A stretch of DNA of 20,000 nucleotides, taken from the IMG/VR virus record IMGVR_UViG_3300035520_000941; one strand, 5' to 3'. Positions 8,334 to 20,000 of this stretch are shown here, one piece after another. The notes below the pieces were generated by a model that saw only the letters and a list, made by a program, of their open reading frames with translations, searched no databases and was not told the DNA's origin. How positions within the stretch are numbered: the stretch's first letter is position 1; the number at the start of each line of letters is the position of its first letter. The DNA comes from an uncultured virus (IMG/VR IMGVR_UViG_3300035520_000941) (Duplodnaviria; Heunggongvirae; Uroviricota; Caudoviricetes). Both the position numbers and the translations under genes were made by a program.

Positions 8334-8642
8334 ATGGAAACAGAAAAAACAAAGATTATAGAAATAATAAAAGACAAATACAGATGTCAATATTATTATT
8401 TAGCAACAACTAAAGACTTCAAATTAGAAGAATTTAAGTTGATTAAAAATGCAAAAACGAAAGAAGAAAGATATGGTTGGGTATTTATTGGTTGGTTTTA
8501 TGGCATTGAAAATGTATTGAAATGGATTATTAAAAATGGGTGCTTAGAAAACGAAGATATAAGCACATTAGAGAAATATGTTGAAATGCAACAAAAAATG
8601 TTGAACGAATGTTTAAAGTCAAAGAATAATGAGGGCATTTAA
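8334..8642 (+). CDS. Hypothetical phage protein (102 aa)
   Basis: RBS AGGGAG; ORF track. Confidence 0.8.
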   Translation: METEKTKIIEIIKDKYRCQYYYLATTKDFKLEEFKLIKNAKTKEERYGWVFIGWFYGIENVLKWIIKNGCLENEDISTLEKYVEMQQKMLNECLKSKNNEGI

Positions 8643-8645
8643 AAA

Positions 8646-9011
8646 ATGGATGAAACATATAAAAAAATTTATTCATTTGATTTTGACGGAACAATTGTAG
8701 AAAATAAATATCCACAAATTGGCAAACCAATTAAAGAAGTAGTCGATTTAATAAAATGCGTTAAAAGAAATGGTGATTATATAATTTTGAATACAATGCG
8801 TGAAGATGAAAAATTAACAGAGGCTGTTGAATTTTGTAAAACATTAGGGATTGAATTTGATGCAATTAATGATAATCTTGAACATATGAAAAAATTTTAT
8901 AGGAATAACCCTAGAAAGATTTTTGCAAATTATTATATAGACGACCATAACGCATTTTTACCAAGCATAAATAATTATTTTGATTTATTTGGTGATGATG
9001 TATCATTATAA
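8646..9011 (+). CDS. HAD-superfamily phosphatase-like protein (cap-less phage type)
   Basis: Motif I DFDGTI, motif II LNTMR, K and YYIDD motif IV. Confidence 0.85.
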   Translation: MDETYKKIYSFDFDGTIVENKYPQIGKPIKEVVDLIKCVKRNGDYIILNTMREDEKLTEAVEFCKTLGIEFDAINDNLEHMKKFYRNNPRKIFANYYIDDHNAFLPSINNYFDLFGDDVSL

Positions 9012-9063
9012 TGGTAAATTAAAAGTAAACAATGTAATTAAAAATAACTATAGGAGTGTAAAC

Positions 9064-10008
9064 ATGGAAGAAAATATTAAGGTATTAGATAGTAAAATAA
9101 CAGACAAATATGCAATTTATAATGGTGATAGTTGCGAAATACTAAAAGCGTTTGAAAATAATTCAATTGATTATGCAATATTTAGTCCACCATTTGCAAG
9201 TTTATATACATATAGCGATAGTGCAAGAGATTTAGGAAATTGTAAAAATGATGAAGAATTTTATAAACAATTTGAATATATCGTTGAACAATTATACAGA
9301 GTTATTAAAGATGGCAGATTAATAAGTTTTCATTGTATGGATTTACCAACAGTAAAATCAAGAGATGGATTTATTGGTATAAAAGATTTTAGTGGTAAAT
9401 TGATTGAATTGTTTGAAAAAAAAGGATTTATTTATCATTCAAGAGTTACAATTTGGAAAGACCCAGTTGTGGCAATGCAAAGAACAAAAGCATTAGGATT
9501 GTTACACAAACAAATCAAAAAAGATAGTTCTATGTGCAGACAAGGGATAGCAGATTATGTAATCACAATGAGAAAACGAGGCGAAAACAAAGAAAGAATA
9601 ACTCATACTAATGAAACATTCCCAGTTGATTTATGGCAACAATATGCTAGTCCCGTTTGGATGGATATAAAACAATCAAACACTTTACAATCAAAAAGTG
9701 CTAGAGATGAAAAAGACGAAAAACATATCTGCCCTTTGCAATTAGATGTAATTGAAAGATGTGTGAAATTATGGAGTAATGAGGGTGATGTTGTTTTGAC
9801 ACCTTTTATGGGTATTGGTAGTGAAGTTTATCAATCAATTTTAATGAATAGATATGGTGTAGGAATTGAATTAAAAAGAAGTTATTATAATCAAGCAGTC
9901 AAAAATTGTGAAAATGCCGTTAATAAACCTAAACAAATATCATTATTTGATGAATTAAATGAAGAAGAAAAAGATGAGGTAATAGCATGGAATATAGCAA
10001 GTTTATAG
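9064..10008 (+). CDS. DNA N4-cytosine/N6-adenine methyltransferase, beta class (orphan)
   Basis: Catalytic FSPPF near the N-terminus; HICP and SAM-binding VLTPFMGIGS...GIEL near the C-terminus. Start placed at ATG 9064 after AGGAG (ORF track gives 8980). Confidence 0.92.
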   Translation: MEENIKVLDSKITDKYAIYNGDSCEILKAFENNSIDYAIFSPPFASLYTYSDSARDLGNCKNDEEFYKQFEYIVEQLYRVIKDGRLISFHCMDLPTVKSRDGFIGIKDFSGKLIELFEKKGFIYHSRVTIWKDPVVAMQRTKALGLLHKQIKKDSSMCRQGIADYVITMRKRGENKERITHTNETFPVDLWQQYASPVWMDIKQSNTLQSKSARDEKDEKHICPLQLDVIERCVKLWSNEGDVVLTPFMGIGSEVYQSILMNRYGVGIELKRSYYNQAVKNCENAVNKPKQISLFDELNEEEKDEVIAWNIASL

Positions 10009-11394
10009 AAAATAAAACAAAATATACAATCAATACTGGATTTGATGTGAAAGATGAAGAATTAAATGAAAATTTATTTGACTTTCAAAGAGCGATTGTA
10101 AAATGGGGATTAAAAAAAGGTAAATGTGCATTTTTTGAGGATACTGGATTAGGTAAAACAATTCAATTATTATCTTTTTCACAAGCCGTATATGAACATG
10201 AGAAAAAAATGACGGGGGGGCAAGATAATTATATTATCACCCCTTGCTGTTGCTGAACAAACAAAAAATGAGGGTTTAAAATTTGGAATTGATGTTAATA
10301 TTTGTGAAAACAAAGATGATGTTAAAGAGGGCATAAACATAACTAATTATGAAAAAATACATAAGTTTGATATGAGCGTTTTTGATGGTGTTGTATTAGA
10401 CGAAAGTTCAATCATTAAAAATCAATATGGAAAAATTAAAAATCAAATTATAGAAGAATTTAAGGATACAAAATATAAGTTATGTTGCACTGCAACACCT
10501 AGCCCAAATGATTTTACAGAAATAAGCACTCATGCTGAATTTTTAGATATCATGTCAACCAATGAAATGTTAGCAATGTTTTTTATTAACGATTGTATGG
10601 GAAAAAAAGGTTCTGGTGCTAATGGTTGGAGATTAAAAAAACACGCTGAAAAGGAATTTTATAAATGGCTTGCCAGTTGGTGCGTTATGATAAAAAATCC
10701 TAGTGATATAGGCTTTAATGGTGATAAATATATTTTACCAAAATTAAATATTATTGAGCATATCATTGAAAGTAAAGCAGATGAGGGAAGTTTATTTGTT
10801 GATTATGCCGAAACTTTAACAGAGAGAAGATTAGCCAGAAAAGATAGTCTTGAAGATAGAGTTGAATTAACTAATAAAATTGTATCAAAAACTGATAATT
10901 GTTTAATATGGTGTAATTATAATGATGAAAGTAACTTGTTAAAGAAAACTATAAAAGATAGTGTTGAAGTAAAAGGTAGTGATGACTCTGAACATAAGAA
11001 AAATAGCATGATTGGTTTTTCTAATAATGAAGTAAAATATCTTGTTAGCAAGCCGTCAATTTGTGGTTTTGGTATGAATTGGCAGAATTGCCATGATATG
11101 GTTTTTTGTGGATTAAGTGACTCTTACGAACAATTTTATCAAGCAATAAGACGTTGCTATAGATTTGGACAATCAAATGAAGTTAATGTTCATATTGTGA
11201 TAAGCGAAAAAGAAACGAACACTTTATTAAATATTCAAAAGAAAAAGAAAAATCACGATAGAATGATGAATGAAATGATTAAAATTATAGGTGATTTATC
11301 TAAACAAGAAATATTTAAACTTGAATATAGACACACTGATTATAATCCCAAAAAAGAAATTGAACTACCTAAGTTTATGAAAAAGAATAAGTAA
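9987..11394 (+). CDS. SNF2/SF2-like helicase split by a +1 frameshift at a G7 tract (468 aa if one base is removed)
   Basis: Frame 1 holds the Q-motif LFDFQ and Walker A DTGLGKT. Immediately after G7 the +1 frame reads GKIIILSPLAVAEQ (motif Ia), ITNYEK, DESS, TATP, GFGMNWQ and QAIRRCYRFGQ, continuous with ORF 10372-11394. Confidence 0.88.
10214..10220 (+). repeat. G7 homopolymer at the helicase frameshift (preceded by A7 at 10203-10209)
   Basis: ...AAAAAAATGACGGGGGGGCAAG...; the longest G run noticed in the window. Confidence 0.95.
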
Positions 11395-11477: not shown

Positions 11478-11927
11478 ATGAAAAATTTAGAAAAATATGA
11501 AAGTGCAGTAAAAGATTATGGAATTTATTTTGGTTTAGACAAAAACACAAGAGAATTATTTGAATGTTGCACAAAAGATGATTGCGAAAAATGTTCATTC
11601 ATGAACCATAATTGCCATAATAAAAAAATGGAATGGCTTTATCAAGAATATAGAGAGCCTATCAAATTAAAAAAAGTTGAATTTGAGTTTTTAAAATATA
11701 TTTATAAACTTGGATTTTTATACATTTCAAAAGATAGTTACGGTGCTTTAGAAATTCATATTGATAAGCCAATAGAAACAGAAAAAGGATATTTTGTGAG
11801 TGATGATTGTTGCGATTTTAACCAGTTTACATATTTTGGATTGTTTGAATTTGTAAAGTCAAAAAACCTAATAAGCATTGAAAATTTATTAAGTTTTGGA
11901 ATTGTGGAGGAAGTAGAAGATGACTAA
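11478..11927 (+). CDS. Hypothetical Cys-rich phage protein, paralogue family B
   Basis: C-x4-CxxC-x5-C cluster followed by WLYQEYREPIKL..VEFEFLKY; similar to 11920-12375. Confidence 0.85.
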   Translation: MKNLEKYESAVKDYGIYFGLDKNTRELFECCTKDDCEKCSFMNHNCHNKKMEWLYQEYREPIKLKKVEFEFLKYIYKLGFLYISKDSYGALEIHIDKPIETEKGYFVSDDCCDFNQFTYFGLFEFVKSKNLISIENLLSFGIVEEVEDD

Positions 11928-12375
11928 TTTTGAAAAGTTTAAAAATGAAGTAAAGGGATGTAATTATAATTTTAGTATTACTAAAGACAACAAAATAATA
12001 CCTTGTGAAATAGCAAAATGTAGAGATTGTATTTTTATGGAAATACCTAAATCTTGTTCTCATCAAAGAATTATGTGGCTTTATGAAGAATATAAAGAAC
12101 CACCTATTTACCTAAGTAAAGTGGAATACGAATTATTGAATTATATTCTTAATAATAAAAAATGCGAATGGATTATAAAAGGAACAAGCAATAAAACTTT
12201 ATATGTATGCAAAGATAAGCCAATTAAAGAAGAAACAAATTGGATAATTGGAAGTGTTGAGTGTCAAGTTATTGATGGTATATTTTGTGATTTATTTCAT
12301 TTTATAAAAGCAGAAGATGGAGAACCTTACTACTCAATAAAAGAAATTTTAGATAATTGCATAATTGTGAATTAA
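11920..12375 (+). CDS. Hypothetical Cys-rich phage protein, paralogue family B
   Basis: CEIAKCRDCIF...C...WLYEEYKEP...VEYELLNY; tandem paralogue of 11478; RBS GGAGG. Confidence 0.85.
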   Translation: MTNFEKFKNEVKGCNYNFSITKDNKIIPCEIAKCRDCIFMEIPKSCSHQRIMWLYEEYKEPPIYLSKVEYELLNYILNNKKCEWIIKGTSNKTLYVCKDKPIKEETNWIIGSVECQVIDGIFCDLFHFIKAEDGEPYYSIKEILDNCIIVN

Positions 12376-13424: not shown

Positions 13425-13735
13425 CATATGAAGATTATCAAAAAAGTGTTAATCAAATTTGCTTAATATTTAATAAATATTACGAATTTTATAAAAACAC
13501 AACGCATTCAGAAGAACAAGATTATATGATTTTTAACTATAATATAGATAAAATTATGAAGTTTCAATTTGAAAGCGAAGTAGAAAAACAATCAAAATTA
13601 AATAAAGAAGAATGGCATTTTATTAAAACAACAATAGAATGCAATAAAAGTATATTAGATTTTGATAGTGATGATATGATTAAGTTACTGAATAAAATTA
13701 AAAAACAAGAAAGGCTATTAGAAAAAAATAAATGA
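13421..13735 (+). CDS. Hypothetical protein (~104 aa)
   Basis: ORF track 13412-13735; TTG at 13421 overlaps the upstream stop (TTGA) and follows GGGGTGG. Confidence 0.7.
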   Translation: MTYEDYQKSVNQICLIFNKYYEFYKNTTHSEEQDYMIFNYNIDKIMKFQFESEVEKQSKLNKEEWHFIKTTIECNKSILDFDSDDMIKLLNKIKKQERLLEKNK

Positions 13736-13760
13736 TTTGAATTTATGAAAGGACAAAAAA

Positions 13761-14775
13761 ATGAATAACATAAATATTTTTGATATACTATATGATAATT
13801 TCAAAATAACAAAACCAATTAGATTAATAGAATTATTTGCGGGCATAGGCTCACAAGCAAAAGCATTAGAAAGATTAAATGTTGATTTTGAGCATTATAA
13901 AGTTTGCGAATATGATAAATACGCTATACAAAGTTATAACGCTATTCATGGTACTAATTTTAAAACTAGCGATATAACAAAAATACACGCTAAAGATTTA
14001 AATATTATTCAAACATATATATATATATATATTGACATACTCTTTTCCTTGTCAAGACTTGTCAAATGCAGGGAATAAAAAAGGAATGTCAAAGGGCAAA
14101 AATACACGTAGTGGATTATTATGGGAAGTCGAAAGAATATTAGATGAGTGTGAAGAATTGCCACAAATACTTTTAATGGAAAATGTACCAGAAATAATTG
14201 GAAATAAGAATATAAATGATTTTAAATTATGGATAAAAAAATTAGAAAGTTTAGGGTATTCAAATTACATAAATATTTTAAATGCTAAAGATTATGGAAT
14301 ACCTCAAAATAGAAAAAGGTGCTTTATGGTAAGCGTTTTAGGTGAATATAATTATACATTCCCAAAAGGATTTGACTTAGATAAAAATTTATATGATTTA
14401 TTAGATGAAAAAGTAGATGATAAATACTTTTTATCAGAAAAAATGGTTGACACATTCACTAAATATAAAAGTAAAACATATAATCGAAAATACAAATTTA
14501 ATAGGAATTTTATTCACACAAAAAAATTGGCATTTACATTGAATACATGTTGCAATGGTAGAGATACCGATAATTATTTGTATGATAAAATGAAAAATGG
14601 TGAAATAAATATTAGATGTCTGACACCTTTAGAGTGTTTTAGATTAATGGGTTTTGAAGATGAAGATTATCAAAAATGCAAAAATATTGGTATGAGTGAT
14701 AGACAATTATATAAGCAAGCAGGCAATAGCATTGTTATTAATGTATTATATTATCTTTTTAAACAATTTTTTTAA
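13761..14775 (+). CDS. DNA (cytosine-5) methyltransferase split by a frameshift at an (AT)9 microsatellite (338 aa with (AT)10)
   Basis: Frame 1 holds motif I ELFAGIG, motif II CEYD and motif III SDITKI. After the repeat the +1 frame reads LTYSFPCQDLS (motif IV), LLMENV (VI), PQNRKR (VIII), LTPLECFRLMGF (IX) and YKQAGNSI (X). Confidence 0.92.
14015..14032 (+). repeat. (AT)9 dinucleotide microsatellite inside the C5 methyltransferase gene
   Basis: CAAAC-ATATATATATATATATAT-TGACATAC; the longest dinucleotide run noticed in the window. Confidence 0.96.
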
Positions 14776-14776
14776 G

Positions 14777-14805
14777 TTTACAATTTAACAATAAAATGTT
14801 AAAAT
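14777..14805 (+). promoter_or_regulatory. Sigma-A promoter with extended -10 and overlapping inverted repeat, driving the recombination block
   Basis: TTTACA (14777-14782), 17 bp, TG-n-TAAAAT (14797-14805); inverted repeat TTTAACA-N6-TGTTAAA (14784-14803). Confidence 0.75.
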
Positions 14806-14836
14806 AGAGTATATGAAAGGAAGGAATTAAACGAAA

Positions 14837-16843
14837 ATGGAAGAAGAAAAAATACTTGTAATTGACAAAATAAGAATTGAAAATTTTATGTCAATTGCAA
14901 AAAAAGAAATTGAGTTTAGCAAGAACTTTAATGAATTTGTAGGATTTAATGGAGTTGGTAAAACAACTGTATTAAGTGCGATTAACTGGTGCTTATTTGG
15001 TAAAGATTATTATGATAAAAGCCAGTTTGATATTTTCCCAATCATTGAGGGAAAAGTAAGGAAAGAATTAAAACCACATATTGAAGTTGATGTTATTTTT
15101 GGTAGTGAAAAATATACTATTACACGTTCAATTGTTGGAGATAAGGATTTAACGCAACTTGAAGTCAATGGATTAAAAGTTAAGAAAAATAGCGAATACC
15201 CTACTTTCTTAAAGGAGAAATTAAACATCAATGATGAAGAATTTAAAATGTTATCCAATATCAATTACGCAATCAATCTACCACAAAATGATTTAAGAAA
15301 TTTGATTGTAAATTTGATTGGTGATATTAGCGATGTAGAAATGTTTACACATGAAGAAATTGAAAACAAATATAGTTCAATTAAAAATAAAGTAATTGAA
15401 GTGGGAACAGAGGAATTAAAGCAAAATATCACTACAAGCAAAAAAAATAGGAATACTGAATTGCTAAAAACGATTGGGGCGATTGAGCAAGAGGAGTCAA
15501 ATATCCAAAAATTTAATTTTGATGATAAGTACATTGAAAACATCAAAAAAAGACGTGATGAATTGTTTGAAATTAATGACAACTATTCTAAAAAAGTTGA
15601 TATCGAAAACAAAAAAAGAAGTGATATCAATAATTTAAAATTAGAAATATCAAAGAAAGAAAATGAATGTCAAAGATTAAAAAATGAATTTGATGCGAAA
15701 AATAGAGATGGAGTAGCAATCAAAGAAAAAATCAATAGAATAACAAATATTGATAACATGAGAAACAATGACATTCATAAAATTGAACTTGAAATTCAAA
15801 ACATAGATTTTGAAATTGAAAGTACCGATAATCATATTAACAATCTAAAAACTCAAAAGCAAAATATTGTTAATGAGTTTAATTCTTTAAAAGGATTAGA
15901 AATTGTTGTTGAAAATACTGTCTGTGAAAGTTGTGGGCAAGAATTACCAAAAGAAAAAATCAATGAAATTCTTGAATTTAAGAAAAAATCACATGACAAT
16001 AAACTTCAATCATTAAAAGATGAAAACGACAAATACAAAGAAATGATTGAAAACGAAGAAAAGCATATTGTTTATATAAAAAGTGAAAAAGAAAGAAAAA
16101 TGGCAAAAATAAAAGAACTTGAAACAAAAGATTACTCACAAGAAATTATGAGCAATCAAGAAGTCAATAGTTTGAATATTGAAATACAAAACAAAAGAAA
16201 TGAATGTATTGAAATTAAAGGCAAGATACAAGAAATTTCAAAAAGCATTGTATTATTAAAACAACAATTAGAAAGATTGCCACTACCTTTAGATGTTCCG
16301 TCAATAAACAATATTAAGTTAGAATTAGAAAATATCAATAAGAATCTAGCAAATTATGAAGTATTGAATGAGCATAAAGGCAATCTTGAAAAATTGAAAG
16401 AAAAGAAAGAAAAACTAGATAAAGATATAATCTTATTAAATCACATGGAAATGCTTTTAAAGGATTATAAAACAACTAAAAGTGAAATGATGACAAAGAA
16501 ATTAGAAAGCAAATTTAAACTTATTTCATTCAAAACAAAAGAAATTAATAAGAGTGGGAATATTATAGATTGCTTTAAAGTTACAATGAATGGAAAAGAC
16601 TTTGTTTCGTTATCTGGTGGCGAAAAAATGAGAGCAAGTATTGATATGGTATGTGGTATTCAAGAGTTAAAGCAAAAGAAAATACCATTATTAATAGATT
16701 GTATGGGTGAATTAGATGAGTTCCCAGAATTTGTAAATACGCAAGTTATCTCATGTAGAGCAATGCAAAAAATCAAAGAAACACACCCTAAATACAACGA
16801 ATATATGACAACTTATAATAAGTTGCAAATGATAAAAAGATAA
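14837..16843 (+). CDS. Rad50/SbcC-like coiled-coil ABC ATPase (phage recombination ATPase)
   Basis: N-terminal IENF, Walker A GFNGVGKTT, long coiled coil with zinc hook CESCGQ, signature LSGGEK, Walker B LLID. Confidence 0.9.
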   Translation: MEEEKILVIDKIRIENFMSIAKKEIEFSKNFNEFVGFNGVGKTTVLSAINWCLFGKDYYDKSQFDIFPIIEGKVRKELKPHIEVDVIFGSEKYTITRSIVGDKDLTQLEVNGLKVKKNSEYPTFLKEKLNINDEEFKMLSNINYAINLPQNDLRNLIVNLIGDISDVEMFTHEEIENKYSSIKNKVIEVGTEELKQNITTSKKNRNTELLKTIGAIEQEESNIQKFNFDDKYIENIKKRRDELFEINDNYSKKVDIENKKRSDINNLKLEISKKENECQRLKNEFDAKNRDGVAIKEKINRITNIDNMRNNDIHKIELEIQNIDFEIESTDNHINNLKTQKQNIVNEFNSLKGLEIVVENTVCESCGQELPKEKINEILEFKKKSHDNKLQSLKDENDKYKEMIENEEKHIVYIKSEKERKMAKIKELETKDYSQEIMSNQEVNSLNIEIQNKRNECIEIKGKIQEISKSIVLLKQQLERLPLPLDVPSINNIKLELENINKNLANYEVLNEHKGNLEKLKEKKEKLDKDIILLNHMEMLLKDYKTTKSEMMTKKLESKFKLISFKTKEINKSGNIIDCFKVTMNGKDFVSLSGGEKMRASIDMVCGIQELKQKKIPLLIDCMGELDEFPEFVNTQVISCRAMQKIKETHPKYNEYMTTYNKLQMIKR

Positions 16844-16866
16844 AAAGATAAAAAGGAGATATATAA

Positions 16867-17817
16867 ATGGCTGAAATTAAAAAGAATGAAGTTGTATACA
16901 CACAAGAAGAATTATCTAAGCATAGCCTTGTTTTACCTAAAAATATAGGCGACCAAGTGTACAATACCTTAAGTTTACAACAACAAAATAACAGATTGTC
17001 ATTTCCTAAAAATTATGATTTAGGGAACGCTTTAACAAGTGCTTATTTAATTATTGCACAAGATAACAAATTAAAATGTTGCGATAATCAAAGTATTGTA
17101 CAATCTATGATTGATATGGCAACAATGGGATTGAACCCAAGCAAAAAACAATGTTATTTTATTCCAATGGGAAATAAATGTACATTAATGACTAGTTATT
17201 TCGGAAAACAAACAGCATTAAAAAGAATTAAAGGTATCAAAGATATTAGAAGTGATGTTATCTATGAGGGTACAGAATATGAATTGTTTGTTGATGAATA
17301 TGGCAATGATGATATTAAAATAATTAAGCCTTGTCCTTTGAAAGATAGAAAACAAGATAAAATTGAGGGTGCTTGGGCAAGAATTATCATGGATAAAGAT
17401 GTATGGGGAGTTGATAGTTATGTTTCAATTATGACAATTGAAGATATCAAAAACGCTCATAAATTAGGCAGTGCAAGAGGTGGCTCAAAGGCTCATCAAG
17501 ACTTCTTGAATGAAATGGCTAAAAAGAGTGCTATCAATAGATGTGTGAAAAACTTTATTAACACAAAAGCAGATGAAGATTTAATTATTGAAAGTTTCAA
17601 TAATGTTGTGAACAACGAATATAAAGAAGAAAAACAACAAGAAGAATATTATGTACAAAAAGATGTAAATACTAATGATATTTTCAATCAAGAAGTAGTT
17701 GAAGAAGAAAAAGAAAGCAAAGTAAAAGAAGAAACTCAAAATATCAAACAAGATGATAATGTTATTGATGTTGAAATAGAAAAAGAAACATTATTTGATG
17801 ATGACATTCAATTTTAA
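16867..17817 (+). CDS. recT: RecT-family single-strand annealing recombinase
   Basis: MATMGLNPSKKQCYFIPMG, SYFG and EMAKKSAINR motifs; acidic tail; follows the Rad50-like ATPase. Confidence 0.9.
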   Translation: MAEIKKNEVVYTQEELSKHSLVLPKNIGDQVYNTLSLQQQNNRLSFPKNYDLGNALTSAYLIIAQDNKLKCCDNQSIVQSMIDMATMGLNPSKKQCYFIPMGNKCTLMTSYFGKQTALKRIKGIKDIRSDVIYEGTEYELFVDEYGNDDIKIIKPCPLKDRKQDKIEGAWARIIMDKDVWGVDSYVSIMTIEDIKNAHKLGSARGGSKAHQDFLNEMAKKSAINRCVKNFINTKADEDLIIESFNNVVNNEYKEEKQQEEYYVQKDVNTNDIFNQEVVEEEKESKVKEETQNIKQDDNVIDVEIEKETLFDDDIQF

Positions 17818-17836
17818 ATAATGATGAGGTTAAAAA

Positions 17837-18445
17837 ATGGAAACAAATACATTTGATTATGAAAAAAACAAAAAAAGATATATTGATATATGTAAAAGTA
17901 ATATTCATAGAGATGGAATTGAAAAACTTTTGGATTGGCTAGATAGGAGCGATTTTTATAACGCTCCTGCTAGTTCCAGATATCATTTAGCATGTAAAGG
18001 TGGATTATGTCAACACTCTTTAAACGTTTATAAACGCTTATTTAAGGAGTTTTGTAATGAATGTGATATAAATAACATAGATGATGAAAAAGTGCTTGAA
18101 ACAGTGACTATTGTGTCTTTATTCCACGATTTATGCAAAGTAAACTTTTATAAAGAAGATGTTAGAAATGTAAAAGAAAATGGAGTATGGGTGCAAAAAC
18201 CATATTATACAATTGATGAAAAAATCTCGTTAGGTCATGGAGAAAAAAGCGTTATTATATTGCAACAATTCATGAAATTGACAATGGAAGAAATAGTATC
18301 AATTAATAGTCATATGGGATTTAGTGATAATCGTGTTAAGGGTGGCGATTATTCAATTATCAATGTGTGGGATAAATATAAACTTGCATTATTATTACAC
18401 GTTGCAGATTTAAAAGCAACTAAAATAGATGAAGTTAATATGTAA
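17837..18445 (+). CDS. HD-domain phosphohydrolase
   Basis: APASSRYH...GGLCQHSLNV, LFHDLCK, GHGEKS, HMG and LHVAD. Confidence 0.9.
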   Translation: METNTFDYEKNKKRYIDICKSNIHRDGIEKLLDWLDRSDFYNAPASSRYHLACKGGLCQHSLNVYKRLFKEFCNECDINNIDDEKVLETVTIVSLFHDLCKVNFYKEDVRNVKENGVWVQKPYYTIDEKISLGHGEKSVIILQQFMKLTMEEIVSINSHMGFSDNRVKGGDYSIINVWDKYKLALLLHVADLKATKIDEVNM

Positions 18446-18459
18446 TAGGTAAAATAAAT

Positions 18460-18789
18460 ATGATTAAAAAATATATTAGCAAAAATGAAGATGGTATAGA
18501 AGTTTGTAAAAGATATGAAATTTTTTGTGATACTTGCAAAATGCGTTTGAAAGCAGATGGAGATAAGGTTATCAAGTTTAAGAAATATCCAGTTAAATAT
18601 TTCAATGTAAAAATTGAATATGCAAATGGAAAAACAGATAATCTAGTGTTATGTCATACATGCTTTAACAACTTTATTGATGATTTTATACATGAATGTA
18701 AAAAAGGCGATAAGTTGAATATTGTTTATAGTGATAATGCTCAACTTTATCTATGTGGAAATATAGAATATGATTATACAACAGATTAG
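18460..18789 (+). CDS. Hypothetical Zn-ribbon-like protein (109 aa)
   Basis: CDTC...CHTC cysteine pairs; RBS AGGT. Confidence 0.72.
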   Translation: MIKKYISKNEDGIEVCKRYEIFCDTCKMRLKADGDKVIKFKKYPVKYFNVKIEYANGKTDNLVLCHTCFNNFIDDFIHECKKGDKLNIVYSDNAQLYLCGNIEYDYTTD

Positions 18790-19276
18790 AGCATTTCATA
18801 ATCACACAAAATATCGTATATCTTGCACTAATAAAAAAGATTTAGGCACACCAAAAGTTACAGTAAAAATAACAAAAGATGGTAAAATACTTAAAATATT
18901 TAAAAATGGCAAAAAATGTTATATACCAATTCAAGATATGATAACTTATTATACAATAGTAGATAAAATACCATATTTTAATTGTGGTTACAATAAAACT
19001 ATAAATGAATATACTATAAAACATAAAATTGCGATAAGATTGAATGAAACTAGCATTAGATTATTATACAAAGAATTAGGGTATGCAACAAATATAAATC
19101 TTTGCTTTTATCCAGATATCAAAAACACAAATATTATTAAAATCGAACCACATATTATTGGAATTGAACAGAATATAGATTTGCTAAATGCAATTATTAA
19201 TAACACAAATGGATATGAAAAAGCATTTTGTTATATAGGTATTAAAGATGATTTTGTTTACTTCATTCAATATTAA
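18770..19276 (+). CDS. Hypothetical protein (168 aa)
   Basis: ORF track; long stop-free frame in AT-rich DNA, co-directional with neighbours. Confidence 0.68.
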   Translation: MIIQQIRAFHNHTKYRISCTNKKDLGTPKVTVKITKDGKILKIFKNGKKCYIPIQDMITYYTIVDKIPYFNCGYNKTINEYTIKHKIAIRLNETSIRLLYKELGYATNINLCFYPDIKNTNIIKIEPHIIGIEQNIDLLNAIINNTNGYEKAFCYIGIKDDFVYFIQY

Positions 19277-19302
19277 TAAAAAAAGAAATTAGGTGAAATT
19301 AT

Positions 19303-19536
19303 ATGGATATATTAAAAAAGGACGTTGTTAAATGGGACAGTGACAAACAAGAATATGAAGATTATACACTTCCAGAGGGTTCATCTTTATATGAAACAGA
19401 TATGAATAAAATAGTGTCTTGTGCTTGTTGTGGAAAGAAATTAAAATTTGGAAATTGTTATACTTCACGTACAATTTATAATACATATGGATTGGGATAT
19501 GCTATATGTAAAAATTGTCATAGAAAAGAGGTATAA
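19303..19536 (+). CDS. Small Zn-finger-like phage protein (77 aa)
   Basis: CACCGK...CKNC; RBS AGGTG. Confidence 0.8.
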   Translation: MDILKKDVVKWDSDKQEYEDYTLPEGSSLYETDMNKIVSCACCGKKLKFGNCYTSRTIYNTYGLGYAICKNCHRKEV

Positions 19537-19538
19537 TA

Positions 19539-20000
19539 ATGAAACACATTGTTAGTTTAAGTGGTGGAATAGGTAGTTATTTCACTCTAAAAAGAGTATT
19601 AGAAAAGCAACCCAAAGAAGATGTAATAGCCGTATTTTGTGATACACTTGCTGAGGACGGCGATTTATATAGATTTTTAAACGATATAGAAAATAAATTA
19701 GATATTAAAATATTAAAATTGTGTTATGGTAAATCACCTATAGAGTTAGCATATGAACAAAACTTTGTATATAATTCAAGAGTCGCAAATTGTTCAAAAA
19801 TATTAAAATCAAGATTATTTAAAAAATGGCTAAAAGAAAATTTCAAACAAAATGAATGTATATTGTATTTAGATATAGATTTTACAGAAAGTCATAGATG
19901 TAATGCAATAATTAAGAATTATAAACCATATAAAGTTGAATTTCCTATGTTAGAAAAACCATATATATATAAAAGTGAAATGATAGATATGTTATCAAAT
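19539..20000 (+). CDS. PAPS-reductase / adenine nucleotide alpha-hydrolase (PP-loop) family phage protein, 3' end beyond the window
   Basis: Not in the ORF track (no stop in window). Manual translation MKHIVSLSGGIGS...FCDTLAEDGDLYRFL...NSRVANCSKILK...IDFTESHR...FPM; PP-loop SGGxxS; RBS GAGGT. Confidence 0.8.
   Translation, partial: MKHIVSLSGGIGSYFTLKRVLEKQPKEDVIAVFCDTLAEDGDLYRFLNDIENKLDIKILKLCYGKSPIELAYEQNFVYNSRVANCSKILKSRLFKKWLKENFKQNECILYLDIDFTESHRCNAIIKNYKPYKVEFPMLEKPYIYKSEMIDMLSN

Follow-up and report, generated by a model that had tools for sequence, protein, structure and literature searches.

A C5 cytosine DNA methyltransferase gene encoded in 20,000 nt of an uncultured Caudoviricetes genome (hereafter the window, meaning the whole stretch of DNA analyzed) was found to be broken by a perfect (AT)9 repeat directly in front of its catalytic motif, while related loci carry (AT)n, (TTAC)n or (AG)n repeats in the same short segment, at lengths that keep the gene open as well as at lengths that close it. 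We lean towards the view that the repeat acts as a slippage-driven on/off switch of phage 5mC that is currently off, the main rival being a pseudogene fixed after a slippage event. We infer that such switching would be adaptive ('contingency'), that it would be reversible in this phage, that the restored enzyme would have 5mC activity and that the phage would benefit from it. The features of the locus are:

13747 to 13753, + strand: Shine-Dalgarno-like GAAAGGA, 7 nt upstream of ATG 13761, read in the sequence
13761 to 14775, + strand: disrupted orphan phage C5 cytosine DNA methyltransferase gene, with Pfam PF00145 on both pieces and a length of 338 codons in the case of (AT)10
13761 to 14078, + strand: N-terminal ORF in frame A, 105 aa, comprising SAM-binding motifs I–III, YIYIYI, a 14-residue out-of-frame tail and the stop
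14015 to 14032, + strand: (AT)9 frameshift site, in frame if (AT)10 or (AT)7, with (AT)10 fitting the homolog spacing
14002 to 14775, + strand: C-terminal frame with motifs IV–X, shifted by +1 against frame A, earliest possible start at TTG 14032

Tandem Repeats Finder reported 14015–14032 (+) as a perfect (AT)9 of 100 % purity, and no other AT tract in the 20-kb window reaches 7 units. All matches to an (AT)7 pattern in the window lie inside 14015–14032 (3 overlapping matches); in dinucleotide-preserving shuffles of the window (n = 200), 0.01 such matches were expected per shuffle and 3 matches were reached in 0 of 200. As would be expected of a contingency locus, the tract is thus pure, lies in a coding region and is longer than chance would produce. 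Frame A, starting from ATG 13761, reads ...DLNIIQTYIYIYI and continues as DILFSLSRLVKCRE up to the stop at 14076–14078, crossing the repeat as TYIYIYI after motifs I–III and then running through 14 out-of-frame codons. Open from 14002 up to its stop at 14773–14775, the +1 frame reads HIYIYILTYSFPCQDLS..., followed by motifs IV–X. The first-pass annotation, which had claimed a frameshift by (AT)9 just before the catalytic PCQ motif, was therefore right, as the two frames differ by +1 at the tract, and the allele lengths it had given are arithmetically correct: 13761–14772 amounts to 1012 nt, so that (AT)10 (+2 nt) corresponds to 338 codons and (AT)7 (−4 nt) to 336. The number of units sets the reading frame, with (AT)10 and (AT)7 in frame and (AT)9 and (AT)8 out of frame. 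Its further claim that a restart at TTG 14032 would have no ribosome-binding site holds as well. The preceding 20 nt contain zero G, for which reason there is no Shine-Dalgarno sequence at this position; the real start is preceded by GAAAGGA at a distance of 7 nt. In public gene calls, the C-terminal piece begins past PCQ and the catalytic cysteine (P0122, 238 aa; P0002, 229 aa). With TTG 14032 devoid of a ribosome-binding site and the called starts located past the catalytic cysteine, a restart apparently cannot rescue the gene. An internal promoter is not supported either, with 15 promoter-like sites detected against 14.6 expected.

C5 methyltransferases are recognized by motif I (FxGxG), motif IV (PCQ with the catalytic cysteine), motif VI (ENV), motif VIII (QxRxR) and motif X (GNS). 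Across the two pieces we read motif I as LFAGIGS, IV as SFPCQ, VI as MENV, VIII as QNRKR, IX as LTPLECFRLMGF and X as AGNSI. Both pieces match Pfam PF00145 (cut-off 22), the N-terminal piece at profile positions 1–59 (E 6.4e-10, 39.4 bits) and the C-terminal piece at positions 66–321 of 324 (E 2.9e-52, 178.5 bits). The break falls between motif III and the catalytic PCQ motif, and the SAM-binding and catalytic parts are not joined by a single uninterrupted frame in the (AT)9 allele, which as it stands cannot, judging from its sequence, yield an active single-chain enzyme. The closest relative is the intact protein P0003 (342 aa), to which the C-terminal piece is 80 % identical, and a megablast search of 13700–14800 against GenBank phages gave no match. 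The nearest solved structure by sequence is PDB 8c56/4dkj, a 'cytosine-specific methyltransferase' (E 8e-39) that we take to be M.MpeI, the CpG methyltransferase of Mycoplasma penetrans. It shares the fold of the phage enzyme and the IDIFTYSFPCQDLSV type of its motif IV, but is devoid of a repeat tract at the site preceding motif IV.

The spacing between DLxI and TYSFPCQ is exactly 10 residues in all 11 full-length close homologs read, P0003 included. (AT)10 would encode IQTYIYIYIL and thereby 10 residues, compared to 8 residues for (AT)7, and as (AT)10 restores the homolog spacing we regard it as the working length. The homolog alignment that the first-pass annotation had suggested as a check thus gave (AT)10 as the gap-free length, and its assumption that the alternating Tyr-Ile stretch is tolerated at the protein level is supported by P0003, which is intact on 3 contigs and reads VLPYIYIYIL and then TYSFPCQ. 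In the AlphaFold model of P0003 (23 homologs; mean pLDDT 83.7, pTM 0.86), I89–S95 form a strand running into the catalytic loop, with the early Tyr-Ile run located in the loop before the strand; since the model places these residues in the strand ahead of the catalytic loop, YIYIYIL is predicted to fit the C5 methyltransferase fold. The family can do without this stretch: of 113 stored homologs that match motif IV, P0003 alone features a YI run. The consensus at this position in those homologs is K-Y-[C/E/D]-Y-I-M, and AT runs at the loci found by protein similarity measure at most 7 nt there. Given this rarity of YI among homologs, the tract is, on sequence comparison, driven at the DNA level and not at the protein level. 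The conserved codons AAA TAT nnn TAT ATA (K-Y-x-Y-I-M) represent a proto-repeat from which the tract can grow. The DNA encoding P0003 was not found in viral contigs, which were searched with its own peptides, or in AT-pattern scans of metagenome and genome contigs.

The off allele is reproduced across assemblies. The exact 105-aa product, which requires (AT)9, was detected on 5 contigs from JGI/IMG and Logan, the longest of them spanning 73,643 nt, and the C-terminal piece is called on an equal number of contigs (4 + 1). With the tract included, the IMG/VR record G001 shows no difference from the window over 13629–20000 (6,372 nt). L070, which has the same dataset prefix as G001, corresponds to the window at 8373–11353 except for a poly-G tract, which is G8 in L070 and G7 in the window; because of this difference in tract length, the window represents an assembly separate from G001/L070. 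All sightings of the tract of this phage (5 of 5 assembled contigs) are (AT)9 and hence off. No on allele of this phage was present among the matches to the C-terminal piece, the next best match being 80 % identical, and the length polymorphism among near-identical genomes that would be expected of a contingency locus was not seen in this phage.

A scan for (AT)≥6 followed by TYSFPCQD within 24 nt in viral, metagenome and genome-contig collections returned a second clade of longer homologs that carry the tract at the same site, with flanks 65–93 % identical:

L015 = L016 = L017: (AT)9, in frame
L019: (AT)9, in frame
L020: (AT)7, in frame
L021: (AT)8, in frame, from a 'Bacilli bacterium' MAG, in which the locus is prophage-like
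L018: (AT)11, out of frame, N-terminal ORF ending 15 codons past the tract

The sole comparison between an off and an on locus in the AT class is that of L018, located on a contig of 1,806 nt, with L015, at 79–93 % identity. L015 and L019 both have a pure (AT)9 while their third codon positions are 66 % identical (200/303), which by chance would be expected at about 0.08 for six codons; this is weak, the loci were selected for pure tracts, and we do not count it as evidence. A protein-similarity search with the L015 protein returned L015's own contig only.

The second clade shows further peculiarities. At TTMGG(E)N it carries a poly-G run (G10 in L015:1881–1960, G7 in L019:1215–1300 and G6 in L021:1883–1930) that is out of frame in L015/L016 and L019. 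Its motifs IX–X (MNNLRIRKLTPRECFRLMG) begin as a separate overlapping ORF, which could reflect either a natural split or one more switch. Downstream of its C5 methyltransferase, L015 has a gene with an NPPF motif that resembles an adenine methyltransferase; this gene contains an in-frame (AT)9, read as PYIYIYIL, at L015:2370–2390.

Repeats of other types occupy the same segment. Searching with the 105-aa N-terminal piece listed 119 other short N-terminal fragments, 64 of them without motif IV, and most of these 64 have frameshifted tails starting inside the same 10-residue segment. Sorted by the pattern that precedes them, the tails comprise 3–4 cases with YI runs, about 23 with FTYLLTYLL and at least 10 with RERE, which are to be read as examples and not as frequencies, the frameshift tail of the query favoring fragments broken at the same site; the short frameshifted proteins ending in YI runs are P0127, P0131, P0218 and P0150. 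The DNA behind FTYLLTY is (TTAC)n and that behind RERE is (AG)n. Because the pattern scans demanded pure tracts and the query tail favors same-site breaks, the on/off proportions and the tract purity given here are biased; with this proviso, a viral-contig scan for (TTAC)≥3 before SFPCQD yielded (TTAC)3–6 at 55 loci with 44 distinct flanks, of which 40 are on, 14 off and 1 ambiguous, the off alleles lying in both alternative frames, and an (AG)≥5 scan yielded 10 loci with (AG)5–11, 6 on and 4 off. Within one (TTAC)n lineage with flanks at least 96 % identical, 5 units are on (L143, L146, L155, L164), and both 4 units (L120, L141) and 6 units (L117, L131) are off. One viral contig of 39,358 nt even contains (AG)7 at L168:111–124 and (AG)5 at L175:1301–1310 in terminal copies that share 110 + 117 nt of identical flanks. 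Both are off and located in the segment ahead of motif IV of the contig's C5 methyltransferase, so that tract length differs inside a single assembly.

Relatives are accordingly polymorphic at the homologous site in the AT, TTAC and AG classes. The recurrence of the repeat in homologs, another check proposed by the first-pass annotation, was found at on and off lengths alike. Its claim of a dinucleotide contingency locus gains support from related loci, which come in on and off lengths and extend to (TTAC)n and (AG)n, whereas in this phage itself no length variation was seen, with (AT)9 on 5 of 5 contigs.

Two observations concern the surroundings of motif IV in other homologs. P0209 (132 aa) reads TYSFPC and then FTADSLVL... 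and matches the Hint/intein domain PF13403, an intein apparently being inserted at the catalytic cysteine. P0160, P0175, P0201, P0220 and P0222 are frameshifted a few codons past motif IV at GMxKG(G), a stretch that, seen at the protein level only, may represent another hotspot, possibly a run of G or A.

The broken methyltransferase gene shows no sign of further decay. Of 125 columns with a conservation of 90 % or more across 117 other homologs, it departs from the consensus at 4, compared to 9 departures for the intact P0003 and a median of 2 for the other homologs. On and off relatives alike often end 150–250 codons after motif IV, or else relatives have an additional poly-G frameshift, and for this reason some of them may be decaying genes.

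The window has a G+C content of 24–28 %, and its ORFs with family matches are all located on the + strand. They make up a replication/recombination module, in which the C5 methyltransferase gene is located, with a sliding clamp, an HNH endonuclease, a DnaD-like loader, a DnaB-like helicase, an N6/N4 methyltransferase, an SNF2 helicase, an SbcC-like ATPase, RecT, an HD phosphohydrolase and a PAPS-reductase-like protein. No restriction gene was found beside the C5 methyltransferase among the ORFs of the window, and as none adjoins it, the enzyme is regarded as an orphan phage methyltransferase. As leads to the host, the DnaB-like helicase is 43.7 % identical to that of a [Clostridium] innocuum phage, and relatives of the methyltransferase occur in an Anaeroplasmataceae phage and a Bacilli MAG. 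The window contains another gene broken by a repeat:

10214 to 10220, + strand: G7 tract frameshifting the SNF2-type helicase gene (9987–11394), in frame if G6 or G9

This G7 is the longest G run in the window, and the helicase gene adjoins that of the N6/N4 methyltransferase. The helicase gene of L070 has G8 and is otherwise identical over 1,848 + 1,132 nt, G7 and G8 both being out of frame; 21 more distant helicase homologs (L071–L091) are intact and have no G run there. With the helicase off in both records, the finding fits relaxed selection as well as switching. Elsewhere in the window, 11478–12375 holds two tandem paralogous ORFs (149 + 151 aa), both matching phrog_22292 (function unassigned), and G001 contains a 198-nt stretch 92 % identical to them at another place in the phage. 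The PAPS-reductase-like gene (19539 onward) includes an (AT)5 at 19961–19970 that is still in frame.

Phage methyltransferases are generally known to have a protective role. The gene described here would encode an orphan C5 methyltransferase of the TYSFPCQDLS type that presumably serves anti-restriction by methylating the phage's own DNA. Its 10-residue segment before motif IV would be encoded by a pure (AT)n with (AT)10 as the working length, from which the (AT)9 of the window may have arisen by loss of one unit through slipped-strand mispairing. With (AT)9, translation would therefore stop 14 codons past the tract, cutting off the catalytic cysteine and motifs IV–X from the SAM-binding N-terminal part, and with only a 105-aa stub being made the enzyme would be off. 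Given the length and purity of the tract, addition of a single unit should bring the enzyme back far more often than ordinary mutation would, and the phage population would hold methylating and non-methylating variants. The benefit would lie in bet-hedging between hosts, methylation being protective in those with Type II restriction but harmful in those with methylation-dependent Type IV restriction. Protection of phage DNA by orphan phage methyltransferases is described in PMC12707154. More tentatively, we put forward a generalization that we hold to be plausible, though somewhat short of probable: a large family of C5 methyltransferases of the TYSFPCQDLS type in gut- and rumen-type phages may feature a 10-codon dedicated switch segment that was independently taken by (AT)n, (TTAC)n or (AG)n, with phase-variable methylation hedging restriction types and the (AT)9 of the window representing one off state.

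The main rival to a switch is a fixed loss of function, according to which a slippage deletion at a chance tract hit a dispensable gene, the off allele swept and a young pseudogene was left behind. We consider this possible, but rather doubtful. It agrees with the same off length on 5 of 5 contigs and the lack of any on allele found, as well as with the SNF2 helicase of the same phage, which is also repeat-broken and occurs in two different off lengths. Moreover, tracts can arise without selection because AAA TAT nnn TAT ATA already is a proto-repeat. On the other hand, the gene bears no additional damage, with 4 changes at 125 conserved columns, fewer than in the intact sister P0003, and three unrelated repeats on one 10-residue segment, on and off among near-identical relatives and varying within one assembly, are hard to explain as accidents. 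A pure (AT)9 should furthermore revert by slippage, whether selected or not. A sequencing or assembly error hiding a real (AT)10 and an intact gene is quite unlikely. Dinucleotide tracts are prone to PCR stutter, all sequences compared are metagenome assemblies and the neighboring poly-G differs between two records, but two assembly sources yield the (AT)9 product, on 5 contigs in all, and it is also present in an assembly separate from G001/L070. Two A8 runs (9416–9423 and 15440–15447) lie inside unbroken ORFs, so that the window assembly is not generally indel-prone, and the off alleles of (TTAC)n differ by whole 4-nt units at 14 loci, a pattern that short-read error does not produce.

Two further explanations would leave the enzyme functional despite (AT)9. 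Recoding would generate the full-length protein if the ribosome slipped by −2 or RNA polymerase inserted one AU unit, and the period-2 (AU)n should indeed let tRNAs re-pair perfectly two bases back to give the same protein as (AT)10. We regard it as very unlikely, since no stable downstream RNA structure is predicted (z = −0.69; 45 of 200 shuffles fold as well) and intact relatives are simply in frame; nor can one fixed frameshift direction rescue the relatives, because their off alleles lie in both alternative frames. A functional split enzyme, assembled from the 105-aa SAM-binding piece and a C-terminal piece started at TTG 14032, has a precedent in natural two-subunit C5 methyltransferases such as M.AquI, and the second-clade relatives seem to have motifs IX–X in a separate ORF. 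It is nevertheless highly improbable here, as TTG 14032 is without a ribosome-binding site, the public calls of the C-terminal piece start past the catalytic cysteine, the break lies inside a repeat at one unit off the in-frame length and the tail of the N-terminal piece is out of frame. Among the homologs read (113 stored), none was seen to be cleanly split here.

If protective methyltransferases of phages switch in the proposed way, phage epigenetic marking would be a population-level trait that is heritable yet unstable, which would affect the prediction of host range and restriction escape from phage genomes as well as models of the arms race between Type II/Type IV restriction and phages. 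Many 'broken' methyltransferase genes in viral metagenomes would then be off states instead of pseudogenes, with consequences for annotation. As three repeats converge on a single short segment, the proposed switch can be tested directly.

On/off switching of DNA methyltransferases by repeats is already known from host-adapted bacteria, as is that of receptor-binding proteins in phages. The hifA/hifB promoter of Haemophilus influenzae contains a (TA)n tract of about 9–11 units that works as a slippage switch; there the repeat is a promoter spacer altering transcription, whereas the phage (AT)9 causes an intragenic frameshift. M.HpyAVIB (hpyAVIBM) of Helicobacter pylori is a phase-variable C5 cytosine methyltransferase with intragenic AG repeats (PMC3411764). 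Like the phage gene, it encodes a C5 enzyme without a working restriction partner and has a dinucleotide repeat inside the ORF, with unit loss leading to truncation in some strains, but it is a bacterial chromosomal gene with short (AG)4–5, as opposed to (AT)9–10 immediately before catalytic motif IV. Among Type III mod genes, M.MmyCI of Mycoplasma mycoides carries (AG)12 (PMC3498834) and mod1 of M. hyorhinis 11 AG repeats (PMC13736764). In these phasevarion genes, too, an intragenic dinucleotide repeat decides on the full translation of a DNA methyltransferase; they differ in encoding N6-adenine enzymes of cellular restriction-modification systems that change host gene expression, whereas a 5mC enzyme is predicted for the phage gene. 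Campylobacter phages possess hypermutable poly-G tracts (Sorensen et al. 2021, Cell Rep 35:109214, as cited in PMC11868660, PMC12823448) and hence likewise show repeat-mediated phase variation in a phage genome, but those tracts are homopolymers in genes for receptor-binding proteins, in contrast to the dinucleotide in a DNA modification gene described here. Within the search terms used and the literature covered, including PMC13076061 and PMC12707154, we found no report of a repeat-switched C5 methyltransferase encoded by a phage. Compared to these systems, the novelty lies in the location in a phage, in AT as the repeat unit and, most of all, in three repeat types having converged on the short segment preceding the catalytic motif.
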